From: Minisyncoccota bacterium
GTDB taxonomy: Bacteria > Patescibacteriota > Minisyncoccia > Phycocordibacterales > Phycocordibacteraceae
Length of the DNA stretch: 64,000 bases
Reading direction: 5' to 3'
Assembly (NCBI GenBank): GCA_041663025.1
Contig: JBAZRE010000001.1
Location: forward strand, 71,585-135,584
The notes under the pieces were generated by a model. It saw nothing but the letters and a program-made list of their open reading frames with translations, was not told where the DNA came from and searched no databases. Below, in pieces: positions 15,772-61,384 of this stretch. The position numbers and the translations under genes were made by a program. The stretch's first letter is position 1, and every line of letters begins with the position of its first letter.

Positions 15772-16833
15772 TCATAAATAGTGTTCAAACGTTTTTGGAT
15801 CCATCGTGTGTTCATAGGCGTGTTCAATGGTGACCTCGCCTCGGTGCACAAGCTCGGCGAGTGAACGATCTAGGTCAATCATACCCTCCTGAGAAGAGGT
15901 CTGGACCACTGCACTAATCTCGTGCGTCAACCCGTCACGAATTAGTGTGCTTATAGCGTTGTTGTTAATCAGGAGTTCGTAGGCCGGAATAAGACCTCCG
16001 GAGACACGCGGAATGAGCCGCTGGGAAAAGATACCCGCGAGAGACCCAGCCAATTGCACGCGCACTTGGGCTTGTTGTTCTGGAGGGAACATGTCGATGA
16101 TACGGTCGATGGTCTGCGCGGCGTTGTTTGTGTGAAGAGTTGAAAAGACCAAGTGGCCAGTCTCAGCGGCAGTGACCGCAGCTGAAATTGTCTCGTGGTC
16201 GCGCATTTCACCAACCATAATAACGTCCATATCCTCGCGAAAGGAGTTTTGTAATGCGGCATGAAAATCAGGCGTATCAATATGAACTTCGCGTTGATGG
16301 ATAAGCGACTTGTTCGGTGTGAACACATACTCAATAGGGTCTTCGATAGTGAGAATATGCTCGGCTCGTGAATCATTGATACGATTAAGCATAGCGGCAA
16401 GCGTAGTTGACTTGCCGTGCCCCACTGGCCCGACTACGATGAAAAATCCCTGTTTGCGCTGTGTGAAAACTTCGAGTATCGATGGCAAGTTTAATTCTGC
16501 AAATGTTTGAGCGATATGCGGTATAAGCCGGAGGGCGATAGCGGTTACTCCTTGTGCACAGTATCCATTGACGCGGAAACGCGCGTCCTTCTTGTGTTCA
16601 TACGAGAGGTCAATGGATTGGCTTTCTTTGAATATATTCCAACGGTGTTCTGGCACAATACTCTTGAGCATTGTTTCAGCTTCTTCGCCAGTGATAGCTG
16701 GATACTTCGTGAGTGGAACGAGTGTGCCAGCAACACGAATCATCGGCGGTCCTCCGGCATACACATGGAGATCCGAGCCGCCTTCTGCGACGACGCGGTC
16801 AAGAAGCTCTCCGAGACGGGCATTAGCAGTCAT
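15772..16833 (-). CDS. pilT: Twitching-motility retraction ATPase
   Basis: 353 aa with Walker A GPVGHGKSTT, Asp box and His box, typical of PilT. Confidence 0.88.
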   Translation of the reverse strand: MTANARLGELLDRVVAEGGSDLHVYAGGPPMIRVAGTLVPLTKYPAITGEEAETMLKSIVPEHRWNIFKESQSIDLSYEHKKDARFRVNGYCAQGVTAIALRLIPHIAQTFAELNLPSILEVFTQRKQGFFIVVGPVGHGKSTTLAAMLNRINDSRAEHILTIEDPIEYVFTPNKSLIHQREVHIDTPDFHAALQNSFREDMDVIMVGEMRDHETISAAVTAAETGHLVFSTLHTNNAAQTIDRIIDMFPPEQQAQVRVQLAGSLAGIFSQRLIPRVSGGLIPAYELLINNNAISTLIRDGLTHEISAVVQTSSQEGMIDLDRSLAELVHRGEVTIEHAYEHTMDPKTFEHYL

Positions 16834-17216
16834 GGTTTCCCTTCTATTATGCGCAGAGTCTCTGCAAGGACCTCAGAAGGAACCGCAGACGCTTTTATGA
16901 TATAGCCGGCGACCGCGAGCTGCTTCGCCTTCTCAATATCGGAGCTCTGACCCTGATTCGATAGAATGATGATCTTTGAGTCTTTTGCCAATTTTTCCTT
17001 GCGTATCGTCTCAAGCGCTTCAAAACCACTCACGCCAGGCATAATGATGTCGAGTAGGATGGCATCTGGCGCACTGGTATCTTTATTCCTAAGTGCAGAC
17101 AGGAGGTCCTCTCCACCACCGAACACACTCACCTCATGACCGGCGTTTTTAAACTTAACTGCATACAAATCAAGAAGGAACTTGTCGTCATCGACTAGAT
17201 AAATGTGATAGGCCAT
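16830..17216 (-). CDS. Single-domain response regulator (CheY-like REC only)
   Basis: Begins MAYHIYLVDDD, with phospho-acceptor Asp in LLDIIMPG and Lys in IILSNQG. It sits between pilB and pilT, and its stop overlaps the pilT start. Confidence 0.75.
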   Translation of the reverse strand: MAYHIYLVDDDKFLLDLYAVKFKNAGHEVSVFGGGEDLLSALRNKDTSAPDAILLDIIMPGVSGFEALETIRKEKLAKDSKIIILSNQGQSSDIEKAKQLAVAGYIIKASAVPSEVLAETLRIIEGKP

Positions 17217-17242
17217 TGGTAGATAGTATACACGCTTCAGCG

Positions 17243-19030
17243 TCAACTTATTTCCTCCTCGGGGAAAAGTTCCCCGCCGAGCGTATTTACCTCTTCAAAA
17301 GGTATCTCACCCGCAAGGGCCTTTATAATGGCATCTTCGCGCATGGTGAACATGCCCCCAGCGCGCGCGGCGGCATAGACATTCTCCTCAACCGGATTCT
17401 TCAATACTACTTGTTCAATATCCTTATTCATACGAAGTATTTCAAAGACAGCGGTACGACCGCGCGTGCCATTCGGGCTCTCAGCTGTTGCAGCGGCATG
17501 ATAGAAGTCCTTAAATGGAGGTAGGTTCCCTCTGTACTCTTTTGGCAAGTCCGCAAATTCACGCTCAAGGAGTATCTTGAGACTATCCGTAACTGGGAAA
17601 GGTTTCCCTCCACCTTCAGAAAACTTTCGGACGAGACGTTGTCCGATGACCGCAACGAGTGTTGGGGCAATAAGGAACGGGTCGACACCCATGTCGACTA
17701 GACGAGGAATCGCACCAGAAGCAGTATTGGTGTGAATAGTTGAGAATACGAGGTGACCGGTCAATGCCGCCTGAACAGCGAGTACCGCCGTCTCCTTATC
17801 ACGAATTTCTCCAACCATGATGATGTCAGGATCTTGGCGCAATACAGAGCGAAGTCCGCTCGCAAAAGTGTAACCAATCTCTGGTCGCACCTGACTCTGC
17901 GATACATTCGGGATCTCATATTCGACAGGATCTTCGAGCGACACGACGTTTGCCTTCTCGCGATCAAGCTCAGAAAGCATAGCGAAAAGTGTCGTCGACT
18001 TACCAGAACCAGTAGGGCCGGCTATGAGAATGATGCCATAGGGGGCCTTCACCATATCTCGCACGGCAATGAGATGAGTACTGGTGAATCCGACCGACTC
18101 AAGTGTTGCGGTCTTGGCTGATTGATCAAGAATACGCATCACCACCTTCTCACCATATTCAGTCGGGAACGTTGACACACGGAAGTCGATGCGGCGATTC
18201 TCTACAGTCGCCGAAAAACGTCCGTCCTGTGGTTTCCGCTTTTCATCGAGACGCAGTTTCGCGAGAATCTTGATGCGGGCAACAACCGCTTCGTGCACTT
18301 TTACCGGTAGTTCCAAAGAAGTGTGGAGGTCGCCGTCCATACGGAAACGAATGCGCGTTTTGGTTGGCGATGGCTCAACGTGAATATCTGACGAGTGCCC
18401 TTCAATGGCATACCGCAACATCGTTGAAACGATCTTTGTCACCGGAGCATCTTCCTTCAAGGTCTCATGGGGACCAGTTAGAACGAGTGATTCTTCGCTC
18501 CAGGCGGCTTCTTGTTGTGGAGTTGGCTCGCCACCCTTCTGTGCAGAGGCATCTCCAGGCGGCTTCGAGGTCGTTTCGTATTCAAAGAGCGCTTTGCCGA
18601 TTTCGCCAGAGAGATTTTCATACGCATTGAGTACTCGATCGAAATCTTCTTTTGTGATGAGAGAAATTTTATAGGGAATGCCTATTTTCCCAGAGATGAA
18701 CTGCAGTGCGTCGAGGGCTTCAATGTTGTCGGGATCGGTAATACCAACCTCGAGCGCGCCATCCACCTTCGCGAGCGGTACAAACCCATAATGTCGAGCT
18801 GAATCGATGGGCACATAGCTGAAAACAGAATCGTCAGCTGGCGGATCACCAAGAAGTCGCGTTGGGAGTCCATATTCCTTCCCCGCTTCGGCAAGTGCGC
18901 TCTCAAGTTTTACTCCGTGTTCAGAGAGCACTTCAGCAAGTGGACGCCCTTTCGCGAGATCCGATTCTACGATTGCTCGGTCGCTTGCAGAAAGGATTCC
19001 TTTATCAACAAATAATCCTAAAAGATTCAT
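17243..19030 (-). CDS. pilB: Type IV pilus assembly ATPase (GspE/PilB family)
   Basis: 595 aa with a T2SSE_N domain and Walker A LIAGPTGSGKSTTL. Confidence 0.9.
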   Translation of the reverse strand: MNLLGLFVDKGILSASDRAIVESDLAKGRPLAEVLSEHGVKLESALAEAGKEYGLPTRLLGDPPADDSVFSYVPIDSARHYGFVPLAKVDGALEVGITDPDNIEALDALQFISGKIGIPYKISLITKEDFDRVLNAYENLSGEIGKALFEYETTSKPPGDASAQKGGEPTPQQEAAWSEESLVLTGPHETLKEDAPVTKIVSTMLRYAIEGHSSDIHVEPSPTKTRIRFRMDGDLHTSLELPVKVHEAVVARIKILAKLRLDEKRKPQDGRFSATVENRRIDFRVSTFPTEYGEKVVMRILDQSAKTATLESVGFTSTHLIAVRDMVKAPYGIILIAGPTGSGKSTTLFAMLSELDREKANVVSLEDPVEYEIPNVSQSQVRPEIGYTFASGLRSVLRQDPDIIMVGEIRDKETAVLAVQAALTGHLVFSTIHTNTASGAIPRLVDMGVDPFLIAPTLVAVIGQRLVRKFSEGGGKPFPVTDSLKILLEREFADLPKEYRGNLPPFKDFYHAAATAESPNGTRGRTAVFEILRMNKDIEQVVLKNPVEENVYAAARAGGMFTMREDAIIKALAGEIPFEEVNTLGGELFPEEEIS

Positions 19031-22432: not shown

Positions 22433-22521
22433 GGAGGGGTCGCATAGAGGCCTAGTGCGGCGGGTTGCTAACTCGCTATACGAGTAATATCGTATCGAGG
22501 GTTCGAATCCCTCCCCCTCCG
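22433..22521 (+). tRNA. tRNA-Ser(GCU), type II with long variable arm
   Basis: Acceptor GGAGGGG/CCCCTCC; anticodon stem GCGGG/CTCGC with loop TTGCTAA; a 6 bp variable-arm stem; T-arm GAGGG-TTCGAAT-CCCTC; discriminator G. Confidence 0.85.
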
Positions 22522-22524
22522 CAA

Positions 22525-22672
22525 TTTTGAAACGCAGTGAGAAACTGCGGATGGGAAAGCAAAGCGGAGCTTTGCGTGAGGGATTCGAAAGCCGGAGCGC
22601 GACGGCGCGAGGCGGGGTCGCGCAAATTTCTAGCAAGAAATTATGCGTGACCGGATCCCTCCCCCTCCGCAG
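22525..22672 (+). repeat. Degenerate duplicate of the tRNA-Ser 3' half (T-arm plus acceptor) interrupted by about 62 nt; includes a 17 nt exact direct repeat of the tRNA 3' end
   Basis: gagggAttcgaa[~62 nt]tccctccccctccgca compared with the tRNA's gagggttcgaatccctccccctccgca. Positions 22655..22671 are identical to 22506..22522. Confidence 0.45.
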
Positions 22673-22716
22673 CAACAAAAATGCCGATGCGAAAGCATCG
22701 GCATTTTTGTTGCTGA
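22673..22716. terminator. Perfect 19 bp palindrome with GAAA loop (bidirectional terminator-like)
   Basis: gcaacaaaaatgccgatgc-gaaa-gcatcggcatttttgttgc. Confidence 0.6.
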
Positions 22717-50794: not shown

Positions 50795-51178
50795 TTATGA
50801 AAACTGTATGGTGTCTCCGGCATTTAGATACACCGAAGCCTTGCGGCGTGCAGGACGCGTGCCGACGCCACGCTTCGTGCGCATCGCCTTCTTCTTGCCT
50901 GGTAGATTCACAATGCAGATTTTGCGAGGTTCAACCTTGTAAATTTCTTTTACTGCTGCAGCAATCTCAGCCTTGGTTGCACGCTTGGGCACCATGAATG
51001 TATAGATGCCCTTGTCGGTCACGATGAGTGCCTTCTCTGAGAACCATGGTGCACGAAGAATCTCATTGGCCATGCCATCAGCGAGCTTCGTCGTGCGTGC
51101 ATGATGCACTCGAGCAGTTTTTGCTGTTTTCGCTTTTTTTGTCTTCTTTTCTACCTTTTTGTTGCCAAATAGTGCCAT
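50795..51178 (-). CDS. rplW: 50S ribosomal protein L23 (about 35 aa Lys-rich N-terminal extension, or internal start at 51073)
   Basis: EILRAPWFSEKALIVTDKGIYTFMV. Confidence 0.88.
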   Translation of the reverse strand: MALFGNKKVEKKTKKAKTAKTARVHHARTTKLADGMANEILRAPWFSEKALIVTDKGIYTFMVPKRATKAEIAAAVKEIYKVEPRKICIVNLPGKKKAMRTKRGVGTRPARRKASVYLNAGDTIQFS

Positions 51179-51942: not shown

Positions 51943-52611
51943 TTATTTATCGATTGCGCCGTGCTTCTTAGTAGGTACTGAAACGATCTCAAGGAGAGTA
52001 CCGCGTGCCCCCGGCACTGCGCCCGAGACAATGATCTTGCCCGCTTTCACATCCACAGCGAGAATCTTCAAATTCTCAACGCGAACGCGATCTTGACCCA
52101 TACGTCCGGCCATGCGGATGCCCTTGGCGACACGGCCGCCGGCACGACCGCCCGATCCGCCGATAGACCCTGGCTCGCGCTCAGAGTGTTTCTGTCCGTG
52201 CGAACGTGGGCCGCCGTGGAATCCGTGACGCTTCACCCCGCCTTGGAAGCCTTTGCCCTTCGTCAAACCCGAAACACTGACCATGTCACCGACAGCAAAT
52301 GTAGAAGCATCGATAGTACCGCCAACCTCAGCCGCATTATTGATCGCATCAGAACCGCCAAAAGCGACCGGGAACTCGCGAATTGCTTCATAGCCCTTAC
52401 CCTTGGTGTGGCCCAAGACCGACTTAGAGATATTCTTCACCTTACGGACGCCCATGCCGACCTGGACTGCTGAGTAGCCATCCTTCCCCTCCTTGGTCTT
52501 CACGGCAGTCACGGTGATTGGGTTGGCAACGAGAATAGTCCCCGCGCGGGCGCGGCCATCCTCCCCGAAGATACGGGTCATGCTTTCTTTTTTGGCTAGA
52601 ATGAATTTCAT
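51943..52611 (-). CDS. rplC: 50S ribosomal protein L3
   Basis: MKFILAKKESMTRIFGEDGRA. Confidence 0.93.
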   Translation of the reverse strand: MKFILAKKESMTRIFGEDGRARAGTILVANPITVTAVKTKEGKDGYSAVQVGMGVRKVKNISKSVLGHTKGKGYEAIREFPVAFGGSDAINNAAEVGGTIDASTFAVGDMVSVSGLTKGKGFQGGVKRHGFHGGPRSHGQKHSEREPGSIGGSGGRAGGRVAKGIRMAGRMGQDRVRVENLKILAVDVKAGKIIVSGAVPGARGTLLEIVSVPTKKHGAIDK

Positions 52612-52623
52612 TTTTTAAAGCAA

Positions 52624-52652
52624 AACGCGCGATGACAGACGCATCGCGCGTT
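52624..52652 (-). promoter_or_regulatory. Leader hairpin 12 nt upstream of the rplC start (GCGCGATG-acagac-CATCGCGC); candidate autoregulatory/attenuator structure
   Basis: A 10 bp stem followed on the minus strand by UUUGCUUUAAAAAA. Confidence 0.35.
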
Positions 52653-52687
52653 CTGCCATAGGACCAGCCGCGGGCACTGTTCTTAGC

Positions 52688-52715
52688 GTTATAAGCACTC
52701 TACACTAGGCGACAA
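52688..52715 (-). promoter_or_regulatory. Candidate promoter for rplC-...-rpsS (TTGTCG-N16-TATAAC)
   Basis: Located between the rpsJ terminator and the rplC leader hairpin. Confidence 0.3.
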
Positions 52716-52753
52716 AAACATGCAACCGCCCCAGAGGGGCGGTTGCATGTTTT
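52715..52753. terminator. Strong bidirectional intrinsic terminator 17 nt after rpsJ (AAAACATGCAACCGCCCC-agag-GGGGCGGTTGCATGTTTT)
   Basis: Perfect 18 bp stem flanked by A and T runs. Confidence 0.6.
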
Positions 52754-52769
52754 CTATCTTGGCGATCGG

Positions 52770-53192
52770 TTAAACCATCTTCACATCAATCGTGACTCCC
52801 GAGGGGAGATTGAGGTTCGTGAGGGCCTCAACCACCTTTTGTGAGGGATTCATGATGTCGATAAGGCGCTTATGAATGCGCATTTCAAACTGTTCGCGCG
52901 CATCCTTGTGCACGAATGTTGAGCGATTGACCGTCCAACGCTTGATTTCGGTCGGGAGTGGAACTGGACCAACGACGATCGCATCGAAACGAGCAGCGGT
53001 GTCCATGATCTGCTTTACCGAGAGATCGAGAATCTTGTGTTCATAGGCGCGGACGCGAATGCGGAGTTTGTGCTCCACCAGAGCAGGTGCTGCGACTTTT
53101 TTCGTCACAACTCTCGCCCGCGGCGCCTTCGGCGCCGCGACTTTGGGGGCTGCGCGTTTTACTTTTGGTTTTGTGGCTGTCGCTGTAGGCAT
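52770..53192 (-). CDS. rpsJ: 30S ribosomal protein S10 (38 aa Lys/Ala/Pro-rich N-terminal extension, or a later start)
   Basis: HKLRIRVRAYEHKILD...VGPVPLPT...HKDAREQFEMRIHKRLIDI. Confidence 0.9.
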   Translation of the reverse strand: MPTATATKPKVKRAAPKVAAPKAPRARVVTKKVAAPALVEHKLRIRVRAYEHKILDLSVKQIMDTAARFDAIVVGPVPLPTEIKRWTVNRSTFVHKDAREQFEMRIHKRLIDIMNPSQKVVEALTNLNLPSGVTIDVKMV

Positions 53193-53198
53193 AATTGA

Positions 53199-53262
53199 AT
53201 AGTTAGCAGGAGGCAGTAGCTGGAGGCAGGAATTTCAGACTGCTTGGTGCTCCTGCTTACTG
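53199..53262. repeat. Imperfect palindromic dispersed repeat (GCAGGAGGCAG...CTGCTTACTGCTTAC), copy B, filling the tuf-rpsJ spacer
   Basis: Same architecture as the copy at 10862..10930. Confidence 0.5.
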
Positions 53263-53263
53263 C

Positions 53264-54463
53264 TTACGCAGTTATTTTAGTTACGACACCGGCACCAACG
53301 GTCTTGCCGCCTTCGCGAATAGCGAAGTGCTGTTGCTCTTCAAGAGCGACTGGCGCAACAAGCTTCACTTTGAAAGTGACTGTGTCACCAGGCATGACCA
53401 TCTCCTTACCCTCTGCGAGGGTCACTTCACCCGTCACGTCTGTCGTGCGGATATAGAACTGTGGCTTGTAGCCAGAAAAGAACGGCGTGTGACGGCCACC
53501 TTCATCCTTGCCCAAGATGTAGACCTCAGCGTCAAAGTCCGTGTGCGGAGTAACCGCTCCAGTCTTCGAGAGAACTTGTCCACGATGCACGTCTTCTTTC
53601 TTGGTACCGCGAAGGAGGATACCAGCATTGTCGCCTGCCTGACCTTCTTGGAGCTGCTTGTTGAACATTTCAATACCAGTGACGGTCGTCTTCATGGTCG
53701 GCTTGATGCCAACGATTTCAACCTCTTCACCAACTTTGATGACACCGCGCTCAATGCGGCCAGTGACCACAGTGCCCCTGCCTTCAATCGAGAAGATGTC
53801 TTCAATCGGCATGAGGAACGGTTTGGTAACTTCACGCTCTGGTTGATCGAAGTATGTGTCCATCGTGTCAACGAGCTCCTTAACCTTAACCGCCCACTCA
53901 TCACTGACGTCCTTAGCATCAAGTGCTTTGAGGCCAGAACCGCGGATAATCGGCGTATTTGCGCCATCGTAGCCCTGCTTTGTGAGAAGCTCGCGAATCT
54001 CCTCTTCGACGAGATCAATAAGATCTGCCTCGGCGACCATATCTACTTTGTTCAAGAAAACGATGAGTTTCTTGAGACCCACCTGCTTTGCAAGCAAAAT
54101 GTGCTCGCGCGTTTGCGGCATAACGCCGTCAGTCGCGGCGACTACGAGAACTGCACCGTCCATCTGGGCCGCACCCGTAATCATGTTCTTGATGTAGTCA
54201 GCGTGTCCTGGCGCGTCGATGTGCGCGTAGTGACGATTCGGTGTCTCGTACTCCGAGTGGTGGAGCGCAATGGTGATACCGCGTGCCTTCTCTTCTGGTG
54301 CACTGTCGATCTTATCAACGCCCTCAACACGCGCGCTGTAGCCCGATCCTGTCAACATTGAGAGGATGTGCAGGATGCTTGCGGTGAGGGTCGTCTTGCC
54401 GTGGTCAACGTGGCCAATGGTGCCGACGTTCATGTGCGGCTTGCTGCGATTAAATTCTGCCAT
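53264..54463 (-). CDS. tuf: Elongation factor Tu
   Basis: [14 protein letters not shown] and NKxD motifs; 399 aa. Confidence 0.97.
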
Positions 54464-54680
54464 ATATCGGATAATTTATTTAATAAATCACGAATAAATC
54501 CGACGTGAGTCGGAACAATCTAAGGCTTGCCGACTCACAGAAGCAGACAAGCCAAAGAGCGACGCCAAGATGCGTTATGAACACTATACGCAAACCTATA
54601 AGGAAATGCAAATGATTGTGGGGAAACACTAAAGCCTACCGCGAGGCAGGCTTTATTGGATGAAGTGGTTTGGCCACCAC

Positions 54681-54878
54681 TTATTCTTCAGGTGACCCAC
54701 GCATCAATTCGGTTACACAGAACACTGCGAGGGCAAGAAACAGTAGAAATCCTACCCGCCACAACCCCATACCGAAATAATTAACTAGAACAAAGAGGAA
54801 CAGGGTCGCTAGTACCGTGATGCTACAGAAATACCGTTTGTTTGTACCAAAGAACAAAAGAACCAATTTATTATTCAT
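54681..54878 (-). CDS. Hypothetical 65 aa two-TM membrane protein between fusA and tuf
   Basis: AGGAGG SD 7 nt upstream; a hairpin AAAGCCU...AGGCUUU just downstream. Confidence 0.45.
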   Translation of the reverse strand: MNNKLVLLFFGTNKRYFCSITVLATLFLFVLVNYFGMGLWRVGFLLFLALAVFCVTELMRGSPEE

Positions 54879-54965
54879 GACTTCCCTCCTCTTTGTAGTT
54901 GAACTTCTGACAAAAACCTCCTCAATCTGACCGTAGCATAGCGCATTAGGTCAGCTTTATCAAAC

Positions 54966-57113
54966 TTACTTACGCGAGGCGATGATATCCGTCGCAATGT
55001 TGTTCGGCACCGTGTCGTAGTGGTCAAATTCCATCGTCATACTGCCGCGGCCTTCGGTCATGGAACGGAGGGTAGTGGTGTAGCCGAACATTTCAGAGAG
55101 CGGCACTTTAGCATGCACGATTTTGTTCTGACCTCGCTCTTCCATACCCTCTATCTGACCGCGCTTGCCTGAGAGATTGCCGGTGATATCGCCCATGAAT
55201 TGTTCTGGAACAATGACGTCAACTTTCATAATCGGTTCAAGAATAACTGCCTTCGCTTTCGAAGCGGCCTCTTGGAAAGCCATAGATGCAGCAATTTTGA
55301 AAGCGATTTCTGAAGAGTCCACATCGTGGAATGACCCATCGTAGAGGTCGACAGAGATGTCCACCATCGGGAAGCCTGCGAGGAATCCTCTCGACATCGC
55401 CTCGCGTATACCCTTCTCCACGGGAGCAATGAACTCTTGTGGAATAACACCGCCCTTGATGTTGTTGATGAACTCGAAGTGATCTTCGCGCGTGATATTT
55501 TTTGAAACTTTCTTATCCGGATCCACTGGTTCCATCTTCTTCATCTTGATCTTCACATGACCATACTGGCCGCGACCGCCGGTCTGCTTGATGTACTTCC
55601 CTTCTGCTTCGGCGGAGCCGAGAATTGTCTCACGATATGCCACCTGCGGCTTACCCACATCAGCGACAACGTTAAATTCGCGCTTCATGCGCTCCACGAG
55701 AATTTCCAAGTGCAACTCGCCCATACCAGAGATAATCGTCTCCCCAGTCTCTTCGTCGGTCTTGATGCGGAAGGTCGGATCTTCATCTGAGAGCTTACGG
55801 AGCGCGATGCCCATCTTCTCTTGATCTGCCTTTGTCTTCGGCTCAATGCGGAGCGACACCACCGGCTCAGGGAATTTAATCTGTTCAAGAATGATCGGAT
55901 TCGCTTCATCGCAGAGTGTGTGCGATGTTTTGGTATCTTTGAGACCAACAGCCGCAGCAATCTCACCAGTGAATACCTGCGCCACTTCTTCACGCTTGTC
56001 AGCCTGGAGGCGCACAATGCGACCAACGCGCTCCTTACCACCAGTGGTCGAGTTATAGACATACGAACCAGCAGTGAGTGTGCCTGAATACACACGGAAG
56101 AAGGTCAGAGCACCAACGAATGGGTCGGTCTGGAGCTTGAAGGCGAGCGCACAAAACGGCTCATCGTCTGACGCATGGCGCTCAACCGGCTCGCCGGTCT
56201 TTGGGTTGATACCGGTGACAGGCTTCAGATCTACTGGAGATGGGAGAAGATCGACGACCGCATCAAGCACCAACTGGACACCCTTATTCTTCAACGCAGA
56301 GCCGGTGAATACCGGGAATATCTCATTGTTAATGACTGCGTTACGCAAGATCGCCTTCAATTCTTCAAGACTCGGCTCTTTGCCGTCCAAGTAGGCGCCC
56401 ATTGCTGCATCATCTTGCTCCACAATGCGCTCAATAAGCTCGGCGCGATATTTCTTCGCATCTTCCAAGAGATTCGCGGGTATTTCACCCTCAACCACTT
56501 CTTCGCCCATGTTCCCCACAAAGGTGTATGCCTTCATGGTGAGGAGATCGACAGAACCCTCGTGTGCTCCCTCTTCGCCAATCGGGATTTGCATGCGAAT
56601 CGCCTTGGGTGAGAGTCGATCGAGGATGCTTGCGTAAGAACGCTCAAAGGACGCACCCGTGCGGTCAAGCTTGTTGATGAAACAGAGACGTGGCACTGCG
56701 GCATCATCGGCATAACGCCAGTTGGTCTCAGACTGCGGCTCGACGCCTGACACGCCGTCGAAGACAACAATAGCGCCATCAAGCACGCGCATCGAGCGCT
56801 GCACCTCGGCGGTGAAGTCGATGTGTCCGGGGGTGTCGATAATATTGAAACGATTTTTCTTCGCAGTATCTTTTTTATCTTTCTCGCCTGTCTTGGTCCA
56901 GAAGCAGGTGATAGCGGCGGAGGTGATGGTGATGCCACGCTCGCGCTCCTGCTCCATCCAGTCGGTGGTAGTCTCGCCCTCATGCACTTCACCGATCTTG
57001 TGCTGACTGCCAGTATAGAAAAGGATGCGCTCACTGCAGGTAGTTTTCCCCGCGTCGATGTGAGCGATGATGCCGAAATTTCGAACTTTCTCTAGTGGGT
57101 AATCTCTGTTCAT
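54966..57113 (-). CDS. fusA: Elongation factor G
   Basis: Begins [14 protein letters not shown]; 715 aa; all five EF-G domains. Confidence 0.97.
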
Positions 57114-57127
57114 AAAGTTTTTAAAAA

Positions 57128-57150
57128 AATAATCCGCCGGCTGGCGGACG
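57128..57150 (-). terminator. Hairpin CCGCC-ggct-GGCGG followed by U7, only 14 nt upstream of the fusA start
   Basis: Minus strand: GGCGUCCGCCAGCCGGCGGAUUAUUUUUUUAAAAAC. Confidence 0.4.
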
Positions 57151-57194
57151 CCGTAGCGCTAAGGAGAGAATAACCCAAATGAGGTGAAAAGAAA

Positions 57195-57228
57195 AGAGGC
57201 GGTGTTTCCATCCGCCTCTCGGAACTCG
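57195..57228 (-). terminator. Intrinsic terminator after the 104 aa gene (GAGGCGG-loop-CCGCCUC + UUUUCUUUUC)
   Basis: Hairpin followed by a U-run on the minus strand. Confidence 0.5.
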
Positions 57229-57236
57229 TCGCAACC

Positions 57237-57551
57237 TTAGGGCTGCACTTCGAAACGAACATTCACTCGTGATAGAGCTTTCTTAAGTAACTTTTTTGTA
57301 GAGTCCAGAAGAGGCTGTGGCGAAGTAACTTTTGCTCCTCCCGCAACAGAACACTCTCCTGTTACATTAACCTGAACGAGTACCTCTTCTGCCCGTTTAC
57401 ACCACCGACAAGCTGGCACATACAACTCCGCGCACCTTTGTTCTAAATTGAAACGAGTTTTTGCTCCCAACAATTTGGCGACTTCATCTAACTCCTTTCG
57501 AAATTCGCTGACATAAGAGCCACCGCTATCCTTCCAAGCATTTCTAGACAT
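57237..57551 (-). CDS. Hypothetical 104 aa protein (start at ATG 57551 with GGGAGG SD); contains a CRWC pair
   Basis: Strong SD 7-8 nt upstream of the internal ATG; the TTG-extended track ORF (to 57596) was rejected. Confidence 0.5.
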   Translation of the reverse strand: MSRNAWKDSGGSYVSEFRKELDEVAKLLGAKTRFNLEQRCAELYVPACRWCKRAEEVLVQVNVTGECSVAGGAKVTSPQPLLDSTKKLLKKALSRVNVRFEVQP

Positions 57552-57658
57552 AGCATTACCTCCCTCTCTCTTTATTGTACTGGCGTTATATACCAAAAGA
57601 CCCGATTTATCTCGATTCTTTTTACCACTCTCTATAAGAAAAGTCGAGTCGAGGTACC

Positions 57659-57685
57659 ATGTTCTAAGGTTAAACCTCAGAACAT
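57659..57685. repeat. REP-like 27 bp palindrome IR1 (ATGTTCTAAGG-TTAAA-CCTCAGAACAT)
   Basis: 11 bp arms with a 5 nt loop; the first of four copies bounding gene cassettes next to the RAYT transposase. Confidence 0.7.
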
Positions 57686-58006
57686 TTGCCCGTGCGATAT
57701 CGTATACTTAAACATGTGGTAACAAACACGATTACAAAACGACGAGATATATCCTGCTCGATATGCGGGAAATCCATGCACGTCGTCTTTTATAAAGACC
57801 GCAGGTATAGGGGCGGACATTACTTTGGGGAAGTACCTGTGTATTCTAAATCCGAGTTGGCGAAAATGCACAGAAGCGGAACTCACCAATCAAAAATTAC
57901 ACCGACGTGGACCATAGATGTGTGTAATTATGATCCAAAACCCCATGCACATTTTGAATATTGGGAGTGCCCGAACTGCTATTGGCATCCGAAATCTAAA
58001 TCTTGA
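57686..58006 (+). CDS. Hypothetical 106 aa zinc-ribbon protein (CSIC...CPNC) bounded by IR1 and IR2
   Basis: Four Cys in two CxxC pairs; the track start is TTG, and an internal ATG at about 57776 is possible. Confidence 0.4.
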   Translation: MPVRYRILKHVVTNTITKRRDISCSICGKSMHVVFYKDRRYRGGHYFGEVPVYSKSELAKMHRSGTHQSKITPTWTIDVCNYDPKPHAHFEYWECPNCYWHPKSKS

Positions 58007-58033
58007 GTGTTCTGAGGTTTAACCTTAGAACAT
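58007..58033. repeat. REP-like palindrome IR2 (inverted orientation: gTGTTCTGAGG-TTTAA-CCTTAGAACAT)
   Basis: Reverse complement of IR1 apart from one base. Confidence 0.7.
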
Positions 58034-58051
58034 CATGCTATGATTTAACCC

Positions 58052-58732
58052 ATGGCGAACAATATCTGTGTTACTGGCGAGTGGTATCACTGCTACAACC
58101 GCGGAACGGATAAAAGAACTGTGTTTGAAGATGTTGCTGATTATGAAAGGTTCCTCACCCTGCTATATGTCAGTAACGGCACAAATTCAATTCGAATTTC
58201 TGATCAACGAACAGGCAGCTTATCTATGTTCCTTGAAAATACATCTATCGACCGCACAGAACCGCTTGTAGAGATTGGTGCGTACGCTCTTATGCCGAAC
58301 CATCCGCATCTAATCTTAAAACAAGTGGCGGATGGGGGCATTGCCCGTTTTATGCAAAAAGTATTCACCGGTTATACCATGTATTTCAATCTTAAAAATA
58401 AACGCACTGGTGCACTTTTTGCGGGTACATATAAATCACGGCACATATCCAACGATCAATATCTGAAACAGGCTATTTCGTACGTTCTGTTGAACCCTGC
58501 AGAGTTGTTCGCAGACGACTGGAAAAAAGGAATGATAGATCTTTCCCAAATAAGAGAGCCTCTCCTTGCCTACCGCTTTTCAAGTCTTTCGGATTTCCTC
58601 GGATCAAAAAGACAAGAAAACAAGATCGTCACAGAGATGGGTGAGTTTTATGAGAAAAAACCAACCCTGGATGAAATGCTCTCGTATGCGATTTCCTACC
58701 ACCAAGAGAACCCCGCAGATACGGAGGTTTAA
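58052..58732 (+). CDS. REP-associated tyrosine transposase (RAYT / IS200-like Y1 HUH transposase, TnpA_REP)
   Basis: HUH motif MPNHPHLIL and catalytic Tyr in ISYVLLNPAE (Y-x3-NP). The stop codon TAA lies in the loop of IR3. Confidence 0.75.
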   Translation: MANNICVTGEWYHCYNRGTDKRTVFEDVADYERFLTLLYVSNGTNSIRISDQRTGSLSMFLENTSIDRTEPLVEIGAYALMPNHPHLILKQVADGGIARFMQKVFTGYTMYFNLKNKRTGALFAGTYKSRHISNDQYLKQAISYVLLNPAELFADDWKKGMIDLSQIREPLLAYRFSSLSDFLGSKRQENKIVTEMGEFYEKKPTLDEMLSYAISYHQENPADTEV

Positions 58733-58741
58733 CCTTAGAAC
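58715..58741. repeat. REP-like palindrome IR3 (left arm degenerate: agatacGGAGG-TTTAA-CCTTAGAACAT)
   Basis: Right arm and loop identical to IR2/IR4. Confidence 0.55.
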
Positions 58742-59509
58742 ATGTGCCGCTTTTTATTTGAAGCGGTGTTTGCTTGAAACGCATTCGTGAGCTCTTCATG
58801 CGAAGGTTGGCGATGTTCTTCTTTAGCCTTACGCATTACTCGACACACCGGACAGTCATCGTCTTCTTTCGAGGAACCTTCGTGTAACCATTCGCTTATA
58901 AGAGTCAAATTTTCTTCAATTTCTGAAACAGAAAGATCTGCTGGTTCAACGTTTCCGTGGATGACTTCATTGTATACCTCACGCGAATCTCGAATGTGGC
59001 GTGAACGTATGATCTCCCAATCTCGGACGGTTGGTTGCAACGCTAATACAGAGGAATTAAGAACTCTCCACTCACCTTTTATTGGAGCAATCCTGCATAT
59101 AAAAACATCTCCTGCGGCAACATCCAAAACACCCGCAGTATCAGCTATCTCATACTGTTTACTGTCATCAATGGCCATCAACATCATGCGGCCATGATTT
59201 GTTGCTTTCACTTCGAAATATCCAAAACGATTGTGTTCCAAAATTGACTTGAGACCCTCGAGGTCCTCGAGGGAAAAATTAAGTGGGTTTGTTCTATGGG
59301 TATAACTAAGCGGCGTTTCGCTTCCCTGATAATGAAAGTTGAAAAGAAACCAATCTAGAAAATATTCGTAAGCATCTTCGCTAATTGGGCCAGTGTCTCC
59401 CGAAAATTCATCCATAGCACGATGGACTTCATTGCCAAACATCCATACATGATCTGGGTGAAGAAAATAATTCAACAAACGTGAAAGTATTTCGACAAGC
59501 ATGCCCATA
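58735..59509 (-). CDS. Hypothetical 257 aa protein (cassette cargo), acidic with C-terminal CPVC
   Basis: Bounded by IR3 and IR4; start set at ATG (MGMLVEIL) with GGAGG 12 nt upstream. No recognised domain. Confidence 0.5.
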
Positions 59510-59535
59510 TTAAAACACAAACCTCCGATGCCAGG

Positions 59536-59562
59536 AGGTTCGGAGGTTTAACCTTAGAACAT
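59536..59562. repeat. REP-like palindrome IR4 (AGGTTCGGAGG-TTTAA-CCTTAGAACAT)
   Basis: 9/11 match in the left arm; the right arm is perfect. Confidence 0.65.
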
Positions 59563-59572
59563 TCTCAGTGGA

Positions 59573-60037
59573 CTACCACGCGAAGTGAGCAAAGGCCTTG
59601 TTGGCTTCAGCCATGCGATGCATCTCGTCCTTCTTCTTAATCGCATCGCCCTCATTCTTAGCAGCGAGCTGGAGTTCGGTGGCAAGTTTGTCTGCCATCG
59701 GCTTGCCCTTCTTGGCACGGGCGGCGTTGATGAGCCAACGGAACGAGAGCGCGAGGCGGCGCGCCTGAGGCACTTCGCGCGGCACCTGATAGTTCGCCCC
59801 GCCGACGCGACGTGAACGCACCTCCATCAGTGGCGACACGTTGCGGAGTGCTGACTCAAAAGTTTCAAGAGGATTCGCACCGTCCTTTTCAATAACCGCG
59901 AGAGCATCATAGACAATAGTGCGCGCTGTATCTTTCTTACCGTTCCACATGATGGCATTGATAAAACGAGAGAGCGTCTCCGAACCGTATTTCAGATCAG
60001 GTCTCCATGTTCTCTTGTGCTTAAGTGGTCGGCGCAT
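59573..60037 (-). CDS. rpsG: 30S ribosomal protein S7
   Basis: SETLSRFINAIMWNGKKDTARTIVYDAL. Confidence 0.95.
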   Translation of the reverse strand: MRRPLKHKRTWRPDLKYGSETLSRFINAIMWNGKKDTARTIVYDALAVIEKDGANPLETFESALRNVSPLMEVRSRRVGGANYQVPREVPQARRLALSFRWLINAARAKKGKPMADKLATELQLAAKNEGDAIKKKDEMHRMAEANKAFAHFAW

Positions 60038-60039
60038 AA

Positions 60040-60447
60040 TTATTTCGGTCTTTTAGCACCATAGCGCGAGCGACCGCGACGGCGCTTATCAACACCACTG
60101 GCATCGAGCTTGCCGCGGACGATGGTGTACTGCACACCAATATCCTTCACACGGCCGCCACGAAGCATCACGACAGAGTGCTCTTGGAGATTGTGTCCGA
60201 TGCCCGGAATATAGGCGGTCACCTCCATGCCGTTGGTGAGCTTCACGCGGGCGATCTTACGAATAGCGGAGTTCGGCTTCCTCGGGGTCTTGGTGGTCAC
60301 CTTGGTGCAAACGCCGCGCTTGAAGGGCGATGGATAGTAGGTCGGGCGATTCTTGAGTGCATTAAAGCCACGGGCCAGCGCAAGCACGCTCGTCTTCGAC
60401 GTGCGATCCTTGCGACCTCTCTTAGAGAGCTGGTTGATGGTGGGCAT
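60040..60447 (-). CDS. rpsL: 30S ribosomal protein S12
   Basis: MPTINQL...PKKPNSA-like...RGGRVKDLPGV-like; 135 aa. Confidence 0.95.
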
Positions 60448-60586
60448 TTTTTTAAGTAAAACTTCCTCCCTTCGCTTGCCTCAGACAAATGCATGAGGAC
60501 ATGCTTTGCCACTCGGCTCACTTGGTAGTAGAAAGCCCGCGAACGCGGGATATGAGCACTATATATAAGGACACGATGAAATGCAA

Positions 60587-61384
60587 CTATTTTTCGTCGA
60601 GAGGCTCACGGTATGGGTCAGTCGAGTATGGCCGAACTGTAGCAGCTGGTTTTATGAATTCGATTTTTGGAATCGCTGGCCCTCCTCCGCTCAGAGCCGC
60701 TGCGGGGCGCGGCGAAGGTCGAACCTTGGGCATGGCGGGCGATGTCATTGTACCCGGGAGATTCGGTGGTACTGAGTTTTTATTCAAATCAATATGGGGT
60801 TCTTCGTGATCTTCAAGTAGTCTGCCGATATTTACTGCTCTCGCTGGCTGTATTTGCGGGACACTAGGCGCTGGTGCAATCTGCTGTTGTATCGGACGAG
60901 GTTGTACTGGTGGAGGTGCCTGAACGATTGGTTGAGCAGGCTTTGGAGGAATAGGTTGAGGCGAGGACTGTTTCGGTTGCGCATATGCATAACTCGGCAC
61001 CGGCGCTTGCACTTGCACTGGTCGTGGTGCGGGCGGTGTTGCTGTTTGTGGACGCTGTTGTGAGGTATTCCCTGCCCCACTTTTCATCTGTTCGCGCAAA
61101 GGAACAAAAATCTTTTGGTTAATCTCTGTCATGATCTCTCGCGCATCTTTGTCTGAGACTCCAGCCGCAATCAATTCTTTCAAAAAATCTTCAGGACCGA
61201 TAAGTCCGAGGAGCATTAGCACATTTAGTGCGGCTATTTTCCCTATCACATCGATGTGAAGACCGAGACGAGTTCCAAGCCCAGAAATAGTCGCTGCGGT
61301 TGTCTTTGCTTCAATTGCTTTCTGCACAGGCAATGGCGACGCATCCATCAACTTTATTAATTCATCATTTGAATAGGAGCGCAT
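60587..61384 (-). CDS. Hypothetical protein with a structured N-terminal domain and a long Pro/Gln-rich low-complexity C-terminal region
   Basis: 265 aa; PxQP-type repeats; downstream of the large membrane protein on the same strand. Confidence 0.5.
   Translation of the reverse strand: MRSYSNDELIKLMDASPLPVQKAIEAKTTAATISGLGTRLGLHIDVIGKIAALNVLMLLGLIGPEDFLKELIAAGVSDKDAREIMTEINQKIFVPLREQMKSGAGNTSQQRPQTATPPAPRPVQVQAPVPSYAYAQPKQSSPQPIPPKPAQPIVQAPPPVQPRPIQQQIAPAPSVPQIQPARAVNIGRLLEDHEEPHIDLNKNSVPPNLPGTMTSPAMPKVRPSPRPAAALSGGGPAIPKIEFIKPAATVRPYSTDPYREPLDEK

Follow-up and report, generated by a model that had tools for sequence, protein, structure and literature searches.

What occupies the space between rpsG and fusA in the str operon of a Minisyncoccota bacterium, a tiny uncultured member of the CPR, and how did it come to lie there? 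In the window, the whole 64,000-nt stretch analysed here (assembly GCA_041663025.1, contig JBAZRE010000001.1), the list of open reading frames (ORFs) gives the minus-strand order rpsL, rpsG, fusA, tuf and rpsJ, and a low-GC block breaks the operon between rpsG and fusA, as claimed in an earlier note on this DNA. We propose that this block is a REPtron-like unit, consisting of a RAYT-type protein and its hairpins, from a new clade in Patescibacteria, a reading to which we give a probability of about 0.6. The unit combines a protein of the RAYT class and cognate hairpins with a characteristic promoter/hairpin/stop layout, a low copy number, occasional insertion into spacers, solo hairpin copies and differences of cargo at the hairpin edges. 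It moves rarely: inheritance is mostly vertical, yet ribosomal-operon spacers, including that between rpsG and fusA, have been colonised several times.

The gap between rpsG and fusA measures 2,459 bp and has a G + C content (GC) of 0.41-0.46, against 0.50-0.58 in both flanks. This low-GC block fills the whole interval between the fusA start (57114) and the rpsG stop (59572) and contains four ORFs, of 104, 106, 226 and 257 amino acids (aa). The three larger ORFs and the hairpins that the earlier note had placed at 57597-59570 are there, but the block is larger than this interval and includes the fourth ORF.

The RAYT-type protein

The central gene of the block is the following:
58052-58732, plus strand, gene for a 226-aa class-2 HUH/Y1 protein of RAYT (TnpA_REP) type, assigned from motifs, weak profile matches and the fold of an AlphaFold2 (AF2) model

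The proposal that this ORF codes for a RAYT-type HUH/Y1 transposase is supported by its two motifs, by weak profile scores (given below) and by its fold. In a 22-member family alignment, the metal-binding HxH motif reads LMPNH84-P-H86-L, with H86 invariant and H84 kept in at least 90% of the members, and the tyrosine motif reads Y144-V-L-L-N148-P149, where Y and N are invariant and P is kept in at least 90%; EWYHC is also among the conserved positions. The Y-x3-NP pattern is given as the signature of class-2 TnpA_Y1 proteins (RAYT/TnpA_REP) in the passages cited here from PMC6006769. An AF2 model derived from the same alignment (pLDDT 90) places Y144, the single catalytic Tyr, on the core's C-terminal helix (135-146), and the protein carries a C-terminal helical extension of ~80 aa. 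The top Foldseek match in the PDB is 4ER8_A, from the complex of E. coli TnpA_REP with a REP hairpin (E=5e-6, TM(target) 0.69, 13% sequence identity in the structural alignment), followed by the TnpA proteins of IS608, ISDra2 and IS200, all with a probability of 1.00 like 4ER8_A. A single-sequence search of the PDB with the protein returned nothing relevant, and the best match of a PDB profile search was only ISDra2 TnpA (E ~0.3).

The protein has 603 homologues, all from Patescibacteria where the source is named (Kaiserbacteria, Paceibacterota, Parcubacteria), and precomputed matches to PF01797 are present on some of them. The nearest relatives beyond Patescibacteria are carried by plasmids, share 26-32% identity and are annotated as transposases. 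We conclude that the 226-aa ORF codes for a RAYT-class HUH/Y1 protein of a divergent, Patescibacteria-specific clade.

Hairpin copies in the window

The 20-mer GAGGTTTAACCTTAGAACAT occurs as four exact copies in the 64 kb, all within 57659-59562 (57659-57678 on the minus strand; 58014-58033, 58724-58743 and 59543-59562 on the plus strand), and has 0 matches in 100 shuffles. It belongs to the hairpin type GAGGTTTAACCTTAGAAC, whose copies in the window are:
57659-57685, minus strand, IR1, full 27-nt hairpin, inverted; the minus strand is the TTTAA-loop strand with a G-T pair (20-mer; folding free energy, dG, -8.4 kcal/mol on the minus strand, z -4.7)
58007-58033, plus strand, IR2, full 27-nt hairpin GTGTTCTGAGG-TTTAA-CCTTAGAACAT (20-mer; dG -8.1 kcal/mol, z -4.7)
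58724-58743, plus strand, IR3, half-site made of loop and right arm at the 3' end of the RAYT gene (20-mer; z -1)
59536-59562, plus strand, IR4, imperfect hairpin GGTTCGGAGG-TTTAA-CCTTAGAACAT (20-mer; dG -4.4 kcal/mol as single-stranded DNA, z -2)

Four palindromes of 27 bp had been announced for this block. The four exact 20-mers account for their number and for the inversion of IR1 with respect to the three others, but in single-stranded folding only IR1 and IR2 are full palindromes. IR3 and IR4 have the same loop and right arm as these two and different left arms. IR3 consists of loop and right arm only, since RAYT coding sequence takes the place of a left arm: the RAYT stop TAA (58730-58732) does lie in the loop, GGTTTAACC, preceded by the final codons GAG GTT (...E-V), and the right arm holds the TAA stop of the convergent 257-aa ORF. 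IR2 is found 18 nt upstream of the RAYT start, and IR4 lies 10 nt past the rpsG stop and is conserved in two related loci (L012 and L013; L numbers designate the other loci and contigs). A 22-nt direct repeat, CGGAGGTTTAACCTTAGAACAT, is shared by IR3 and IR4 and flanks the 257-aa gene. The exact 20-mer had 0 matches in the GTDB species genomes and in IMG/VR, neither of which represents the source genome.

Two further candidates were set aside. A terminator-like hairpin at 59518-59542, overlapping IR4, is not conserved, being lost through a 9-nt deletion in L012/L013, and an AGG/CCT-apex hairpin at 50921-50943 lies within rplW, needs G-T pairs and was treated as a chance occurrence.

Anatomy common to the family

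A family scan of the GTDB species genomes yielded 417 loci, all of the Patescibacteria family, and the anatomy was analysed in the best 80 of these 417 together with metagenome loci. A strict test, which accepted only perfect stems of 7 bp or more around a 5-nt loop (upstream search span reaching at most 85 nt from the start, expectation 0.017 per span), detected an upstream hairpin in 46/80 loci and a hairpin at the stop codon in 46/80, and relaxed criteria raised these counts to 65 upstream and 58 downstream hairpins in ~80 loci. The foot of the upstream hairpin stands at a median of 19 nt before the ATG, and in most loci the second hairpin lies at or just past the stop codon. The apex is conserved as RAGG-5 nt-CCTY (GAGG/CCTC or AAGG/CCTT), with a loop that is mostly TTTAA or TTAAA. 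In contrast, the covarying lower stem varies between loci yet is identical on either side of one gene, indicating that each RAYT has its own cognate hairpin. The complete chromosome CP066682.1 has two hairpin types, CCCGCAGG-N5-CCTGCGGG and TACCGAGGTTTAACCTCGGTA. Members of a more distant subfamily, 41-51% identical to the protein of the window (L066, L070, L079, L081, L085, L092, L095 and L100), have a third cognate hairpin inside the RAYT ORF, ~155-195 nt into it, in the variable segment of the protein.

The stop codon lies within the hairpin in 33 of 58 loci, either in the loop (16/58) or in a stem arm (17/58), and relatives of the window locus have a full hairpin there. This embedding explains the recurrent C-termini ...EV*, ...KV* and ...KVKP*. 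At the other end of the gene, a predicted promoter is fused to the hairpin:
58036-58044, plus strand, extended -10 element TGCTATGAT, ending 7 nt before the RAYT ATG

The pattern TGnTAnnnT ends within 15 nt of the ATG, mostly 6-7 nt before it, in 42/66 family loci, against 12% of the long ORFs of the same loci, and IR2, like the upstream hairpin of the family, occupies the -35/spacer position of the predicted promoter. An extended -10 element so close to the ATG implies that the RAYT mRNA should be leaderless. Among ORFs of at least 250 aa in L001-L100 and the window, ~12% have a TGnTAnnnT ending 5-8 nt before the first ATG, so leaderless transcripts appear to be common in these genomes.

Hairpins of the family also occur alone. 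In 844 kb of flanking sequence more than 3 kb from any family member, those with an AGG/CCT apex and a family-type loop are the commonest class of perfect hairpins (18/173, about one per 47 kb). A metagenome scan with the window-type arm returned at least 50 loci without a RAYT; about ten full window-type palindromes among the matches listed are intergenic, often just past a stop codon, on RAYT-less contigs. The known RAYT-adjacent JGI contigs L005 and L009 are not among these matches, so that the counts are lower bounds and not densities. Solo REP-like copies therefore exist.

Genes bounded by hairpins

Two genes of the block are fenced by hairpins on both sides:
57686-58006, plus strand, Zn-ribbon-like cargo gene between IR1 and IR2 (106-aa ORF, likely start GTG 57716, weak Zn_ribbon match)
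58735-59508, minus strand, 257-aa cargo gene of unknown function between IR3 and IR4 (ORF)

The Zn-ribbon ORF, whose stop precedes IR2 by one base, has 21 homologues, one of them with 91% aa identity in L012. The 257-aa gene lies on the opposite strand, as had been noted, and a -10-like sequence, TGTTTTAAT, stands just upstream of its start. Its product has five close homologues, of which the two whose context was retrieved (L012, L013) adjoin a RAYT, and 262 remote relatives sharing the N-terminal ~150 aa, with a SEC-C motif in 2/10 and TPR repeats in 2/10 of those scanned. No match to the 257-aa protein was found in Pfam, PADLOC or PHROG, and its AF2 model is poor (pLDDT 54).

Such hairpin-bounded genes recur in the family: about 10% of the loci have extra cognate hairpins 0.4-3 kb from the RAYT that bracket one to three genes (the window, its close relative L012, L024, L033, L035, L039, L050 and L088). 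The clearest array, in L024, consists of hairpin, RAYT, hairpin, 200-aa gene, hairpin, 446-aa gene and hairpin, every hairpin being direct. In L033, L035 and L028, flanks and RAYT share 76-79% nucleotide identity around three unrelated cargos, and homology returns at the inner hairpin; L054, L055 and L063 have 460-790 extra nt straight after the 3' hairpin compared with syntenic partners. These comparisons suggest a gain and loss of genes at hairpin edges. Hybrid hairpins, with the left arm of one type and the right arm of another, were found as the outer copies of L033 and L035 and in a spc ribosomal-operon spacer of two RAYT-less metagenome contigs (L130:8490-8530, L134:795-835; left arm GTCTCCGGAGG, right arm CCTTAGAAC of the window type). 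Partial tandem arm duplications (GTGTTCTGAG-GTGTTCTGAGGTTTAACC... in L012:1895-1935, minus strand; three half-hairpins in a row in L118:1930-1995) may have been left by breakage and rejoining close to the apex.

These arrays raise the possibility of an integron-like capture by the HUH/Y1 enzyme, in which every gene between hairpins would move as a cassette, leaving its place as a single-stranded circle with one hairpin and re-entering beside the RAYT-proximal hairpin, giving direct-repeat arrays. As with integrons (IntI, attI, attC), single genes are parted by a repeated foldable palindrome beside the gene of a DNA-processing enzyme, and cargo differs among relatives. Direct identical hairpins separate single genes in the window (IR2, IR3, IR4) and in L024, the repeat of IR3 and IR4 around the 257-aa gene is direct, unrelated cargo sits exactly between hairpins in syntenic genomes, the hybrids suggest a crossover at the conserved apex, and one cargo ORF (L033_185) has its end, ...SPEV*, within a hairpin loop, like the RAYT.

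Against this, no cargo family was seen at two different hairpin-flanked sites, the 257-aa family is known in one arrangement only, and the cargo proteins of different arrays have no mutual homology. In a Kaiserbacteria-like genome (L014:8900-11050), the rpsG/fusA spacer lacks both RAYT and hairpins but contains a Zn-ribbon homologue with 71% identity, an unknown gene of 216 aa and a gene with a PaaX_M domain, and the Zn-ribbon family is likewise without hairpins in L017-L020, in a Fic/RadC/PIF1 neighbourhood. The variable cargo of L028, L054 and L055 adjoins a hairpin on one side only, and the bracketed segment of L088 appears, from sequence motifs, to be a three-gene cluster for a signal peptidase and a TasA-like protein. 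The L014 homologue and the L088 segment indicate that hairpins may instead have spread around resident genes. Neither circles nor empty cassette sites were observed. The chemistry also departs from that of integrons, with an HUH/Y1 fold in place of the tyrosine recombinase IntI, hairpins of 21-29 nt with an identical core (repeats of 20-27 nt in the window) in place of diverse attC sites of 60-140 bp, mixed cargo orientation and some cargo with its own promoter. We therefore regard cassette capture as unlikely. The three ORFs that the earlier note took for single-gene cassettes are real and each has homologues; the fenced genes may be captured cassettes or resident genes.

A short Cys-rich ORF (71 aa, CPLC...C; L009:9648-9863) stands just upstream of the 5' hairpin of the RAYT in L009, the position of the Zn-ribbon gene in the window; its product has no detectable similarity to the window Zn-ribbon protein.

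Copy number, inheritance and movement

The window contains one RAYT copy and several genomes contain two or three family members each. Seven paralogue pairs in four genomes share 38-64% identity, which excludes recent duplicates. A low copy number without recent duplicates is the behaviour of RAYTs, unlike that of insertion sequence (IS) elements (PMC5581495 and PMC6006769, in the passages cited). Large syntenic groups of loci point to stable vertical inheritance.

Movement nevertheless occurs. The rpoB/trmD spacer is empty (170-250 nt) in L051, L060, L054 and L065, whereas L028, L033 and L035 have a RAYT with hairpins in this place, and in L033 and L035 trmD takes its stop and its final three or four codons from the hairpin. 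The RAYT gene has a GC 7 points below that of its flanks in 78/79 loci. A RAYT is found in the rpsG/fusA spacer in the window, L007, L010 and L048, and related sites are located next to fusA (L009), upstream of rpsL (L024), between rplB and rpsS (L001) and next to rplC (L022). The RAYTs of the rpsG/fusA spacer are only 47-55% identical, against 82-88% for EF-G of the same genomes, have different hairpin types and include one in opposite orientation. This mismatch of identities indicates that the rpsG/fusA spacer was colonised repeatedly and not inherited once, and leads us to reject a simple vertical inheritance of this position. The synteny comparison proposed in the earlier note to date the insertion thus shows repeated colonisation of the spacer by RAYTs in related genomes.

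Filled and empty sites, the GC lower than that of the host, non-orthologous RAYTs in the same spacer and a compact unit framed by hairpins, like the ends of IS200/IS605, could also be expected from an ordinary active IS200-like element, that is, a selfish hairpin-RAYT-hairpin unit of ~750 bp, the array representing nested or adjacent insertions and their remnants. The block shares with this family (IS608 and ISDra2 TnpA) the HUH/Y1 fold, the small unit with subterminal hairpins and the intergenic or 3'-end insertion without obvious flanking duplication. However, we consider an active element improbable. Identical or near-identical copies are absent within any sampled genome, long syntenic conservation is observed, and tnpB is lacking, none of the four block ORFs resembling TnpB. 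The protein is also longer, 226 aa against 125-152 residues for the TnpA chains of IS608, ISDra2 and IS200 in the fold-search table, and its Y-x3-NP motif, which replaces the Y-x3-Q of IS200/IS605 (PMC6006769, passages cited), together with the best fold match, favours TnpA_REP over IS200 TnpA. Finally, its ends occur in either orientation at random, whereas those of IS200/IS605 lie on one strand according to the same passages of PMC6006769.

Least probable of all, and in our view very improbable, is a purely regulatory role, in which the palindromes would serve the host as bidirectional terminators, mRNA stabilisers or an operator and would bracket genes incidentally, the RAYT-like protein being a domesticated, non-cutting DNA-binding regulator. 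Hairpins do stand at gene ends, often over stop codons, and as solo copies, the 5' copy overlaps the RAYT's own promoter like an operator and orientation appears irrelevant. However, the hairpins are not followed by a T-tract, the 5' copy precedes the inferred start of the leaderless RAYT mRNA and is hence not part of it, the HxH and Tyr of the catalytic site show no or almost no variation in the family, a generic terminator would not need a locus-specific stem matching on both sides of the gene, and the hybrid hairpins and the filled versus empty sites indicate DNA rearrangement.

A probable REPtron-like unit and its relation to known systems

We return to the reading of the block as a REPtron-like unit, against which several observations weigh. 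The profile search suggested in the earlier note fell short: Pfam Y1_Tnp (PF01797) scores 18.6 bits for a cut-off of 23 (E=0.002), and NCBIfam REP_Tyr_transpos (NF047646) likewise stays below its cut-off (32 bits for 80, E=1e-7). No copy of the 20-mer exists in the rest of the window, and the density of solo hairpins is far below that of classical REPs. The earlier description of a REP/RAYT array holds in that the palindromes are cognate hairpins with the same anatomy in ~80 loci, but the GT[AG]G guide that defines REPs is absent, no conserved position for such a 5' guide being found within 10 nt of either foot of 76 TTTAA-loop hairpins. The two flanking hairpins have the same orientation in 25 loci and opposite orientations in 23, a random arrangement that a strand-specific mechanism on single-stranded DNA would not predict; this mix would also be compatible with a protein that recognises a double-stranded palindrome, such as an operator. 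The ~4.5-fold enrichment of homology breakpoints at hairpins (7% vs 1.6%) is confounded, because similarity decreases at gene boundaries in any case and these are the places where hairpins stand.

A close known counterpart is the E. coli REPtron, formed by TnpA_REP (RAYT, YafM) and its REP/BIME sequences (PDB 4ER8; PMC6006769 and PMC5581495, passages cited). It provides the best structural match and has the HxH and Y-x3-NP motifs, and both systems present a gene flanked by its own cognate hairpins, a low copy number with diverged paralogues each having its own hairpin type, mostly vertical inheritance and solo intergenic hairpins. The Patescibacteria protein differs from TnpA_REP by its low identity (13%), its C-terminal extension of ~80 aa and its host. 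Its hairpins differ from E. coli REPs in having the RAGG/CCTY apex, instead of a GT[AG]G guide, as their conserved part, and in numbering only a handful, mostly within 3 kb of the gene, instead of hundreds genome-wide. A stop codon in the hairpin, a hairpin fused to a predicted leaderless promoter and hairpin-bounded cargo further set the unit apart from the E. coli REPtron.

The closest described case is TnpA_Y1 subclass 2.6 (RAYT group 5, mostly Bacteroidetes), for which the passages cited from Quentin et al. 2018 (PMC6006769) report atypical flanking hairpins, no canonical GTAG guide and further copies in the genome. The likeness lies in the class-2 signature and in the atypical hairpins without GTAG guide; the taxon is different, and those passages do not mention the hairpin/promoter/stop layout or cargo arrays for subclass 2.6. 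A literature search returned no paper describing RAYTs in Patescibacteria.

By analogy with TnpA_REP and IS608 TnpA, the protein would bind the folded hairpin on single-stranded DNA and would cut and rejoin DNA at or beside it, and the same relatives suggest that this cutting would keep protein and hairpins co-evolving. Extra hairpin copies would be seeded occasionally nearby and more rarely elsewhere in the genome. Hairpin edges would then become break-and-join points where DNA segments may be gained, lost or swapped, and the Zn-ribbon and 257-aa genes would be examples of the resulting hairpin-bounded cargo. The unit may be tolerated in ribosomal-operon spacers because its genes come with promoters of their own and stop codons are present on either strand of the hairpin. 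A bolder extension of this scheme, which we hold to be doubtful, would make the RAYT and hairpins of Patescibacteria a gene-capture platform acting on single-stranded DNA, an integron analogue of different chemistry in which genes are inserted, swapped and lost at RAYT-adjacent hairpins, with the highly transcribed ribosomal-operon spacers as preferred landing sites.

Neighbouring features and other ribosomal-operon spacers

The remaining ORF of the block, a hairpin of another kind and the flanking genes are as follows:
57237-57551, minus strand, 104-aa ORF of unknown function with a CxxC motif (ORF; called as a 104-aa gene on contig L003)
57132-57149, minus strand, GC-rich hairpin resembling a terminator, with a T-run behind it, its end 18 nt ahead of the fusA start (sequence)
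60040-60447, minus strand, rpsL (ORF)
59573-60037, minus strand, rpsG (ribosomal protein S7), upstream boundary of the block (ORF; Pfam Ribosomal_S7 on the identical contig L003)
54966-57113, minus strand, fusA (EF-G), downstream boundary of the block (ORF; also called on contig L003)
53264-54463, minus strand, tuf (ORF)
52770-53192, minus strand, rpsJ (ORF)

The 104-aa ORF lies in the low-GC block to the left of IR1, outside the hairpins, has its own Shine-Dalgarno sequence and has a partial homologue in L012 (58%). PADLOC and PHROGs searches with the four block ORFs returned nothing except one weak SduA match (E=0.017), none of the four matched integrase or recombinase families in Pfam and NCBIfam, and an Rfam scan of 52000-61000 found no family.

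The str operon, normally tight, has a further gap between tuf and fusA, where a spacer of 500 nt (54464-54965) accommodates a hydrophobic ORF of 65 aa (54681-54878, minus strand). Between rpsJ and rplC, inside the S10 operon, a perfect hairpin with an 18-bp stem, AAAACATGCAACCGCCCC-AGA-GGGGCGGTTGCATGTTTT (52715-52753), looks like a bidirectional terminator or attenuator. Another perfect hairpin, with a 21-bp stem (22670-22715), is located ~150 nt downstream of tRNA-Ser GCT (22433-22522), the sole tRNA gene of the window. In GCA_030674455.1 (L001:7400-12100 and 16600-18520), the S10/spc ribosomal operon is interrupted in several spacers: the rplB-rpsS gap contains a helix-turn-helix protein and an 87-aa gene, a RAYT and an 893-aa PG_binding protein, and the rplE-rpsN gap a YafQ-toxin pair, an unknown gene and a GIY-YIG gene. 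Accessory insertions seem to be generally tolerated by the ribosomal operons of these bacteria.

Implications

The role of RAYTs and the way in which REP hairpins are copied are still unsettled after more than ten years (PMC5581495 and PMC6006769, passages cited). This lineage of Patescibacteria presents a stripped-down REP/RAYT system, with genomes of ~1 Mb, few hairpins per RAYT and a fixed promoter/hairpin/stop architecture. Its natural filled and empty sites and its differences of cargo at hairpin edges make two questions testable, where the enzyme cuts and whether it moves DNA other than the hairpin, by means of one small protein, 27-nt oligonucleotides and existing metagenome reads. For the organisms themselves, the finding means that the str and S10 ribosomal operons, normally contiguous, have been repeatedly broken by accessory DNA.

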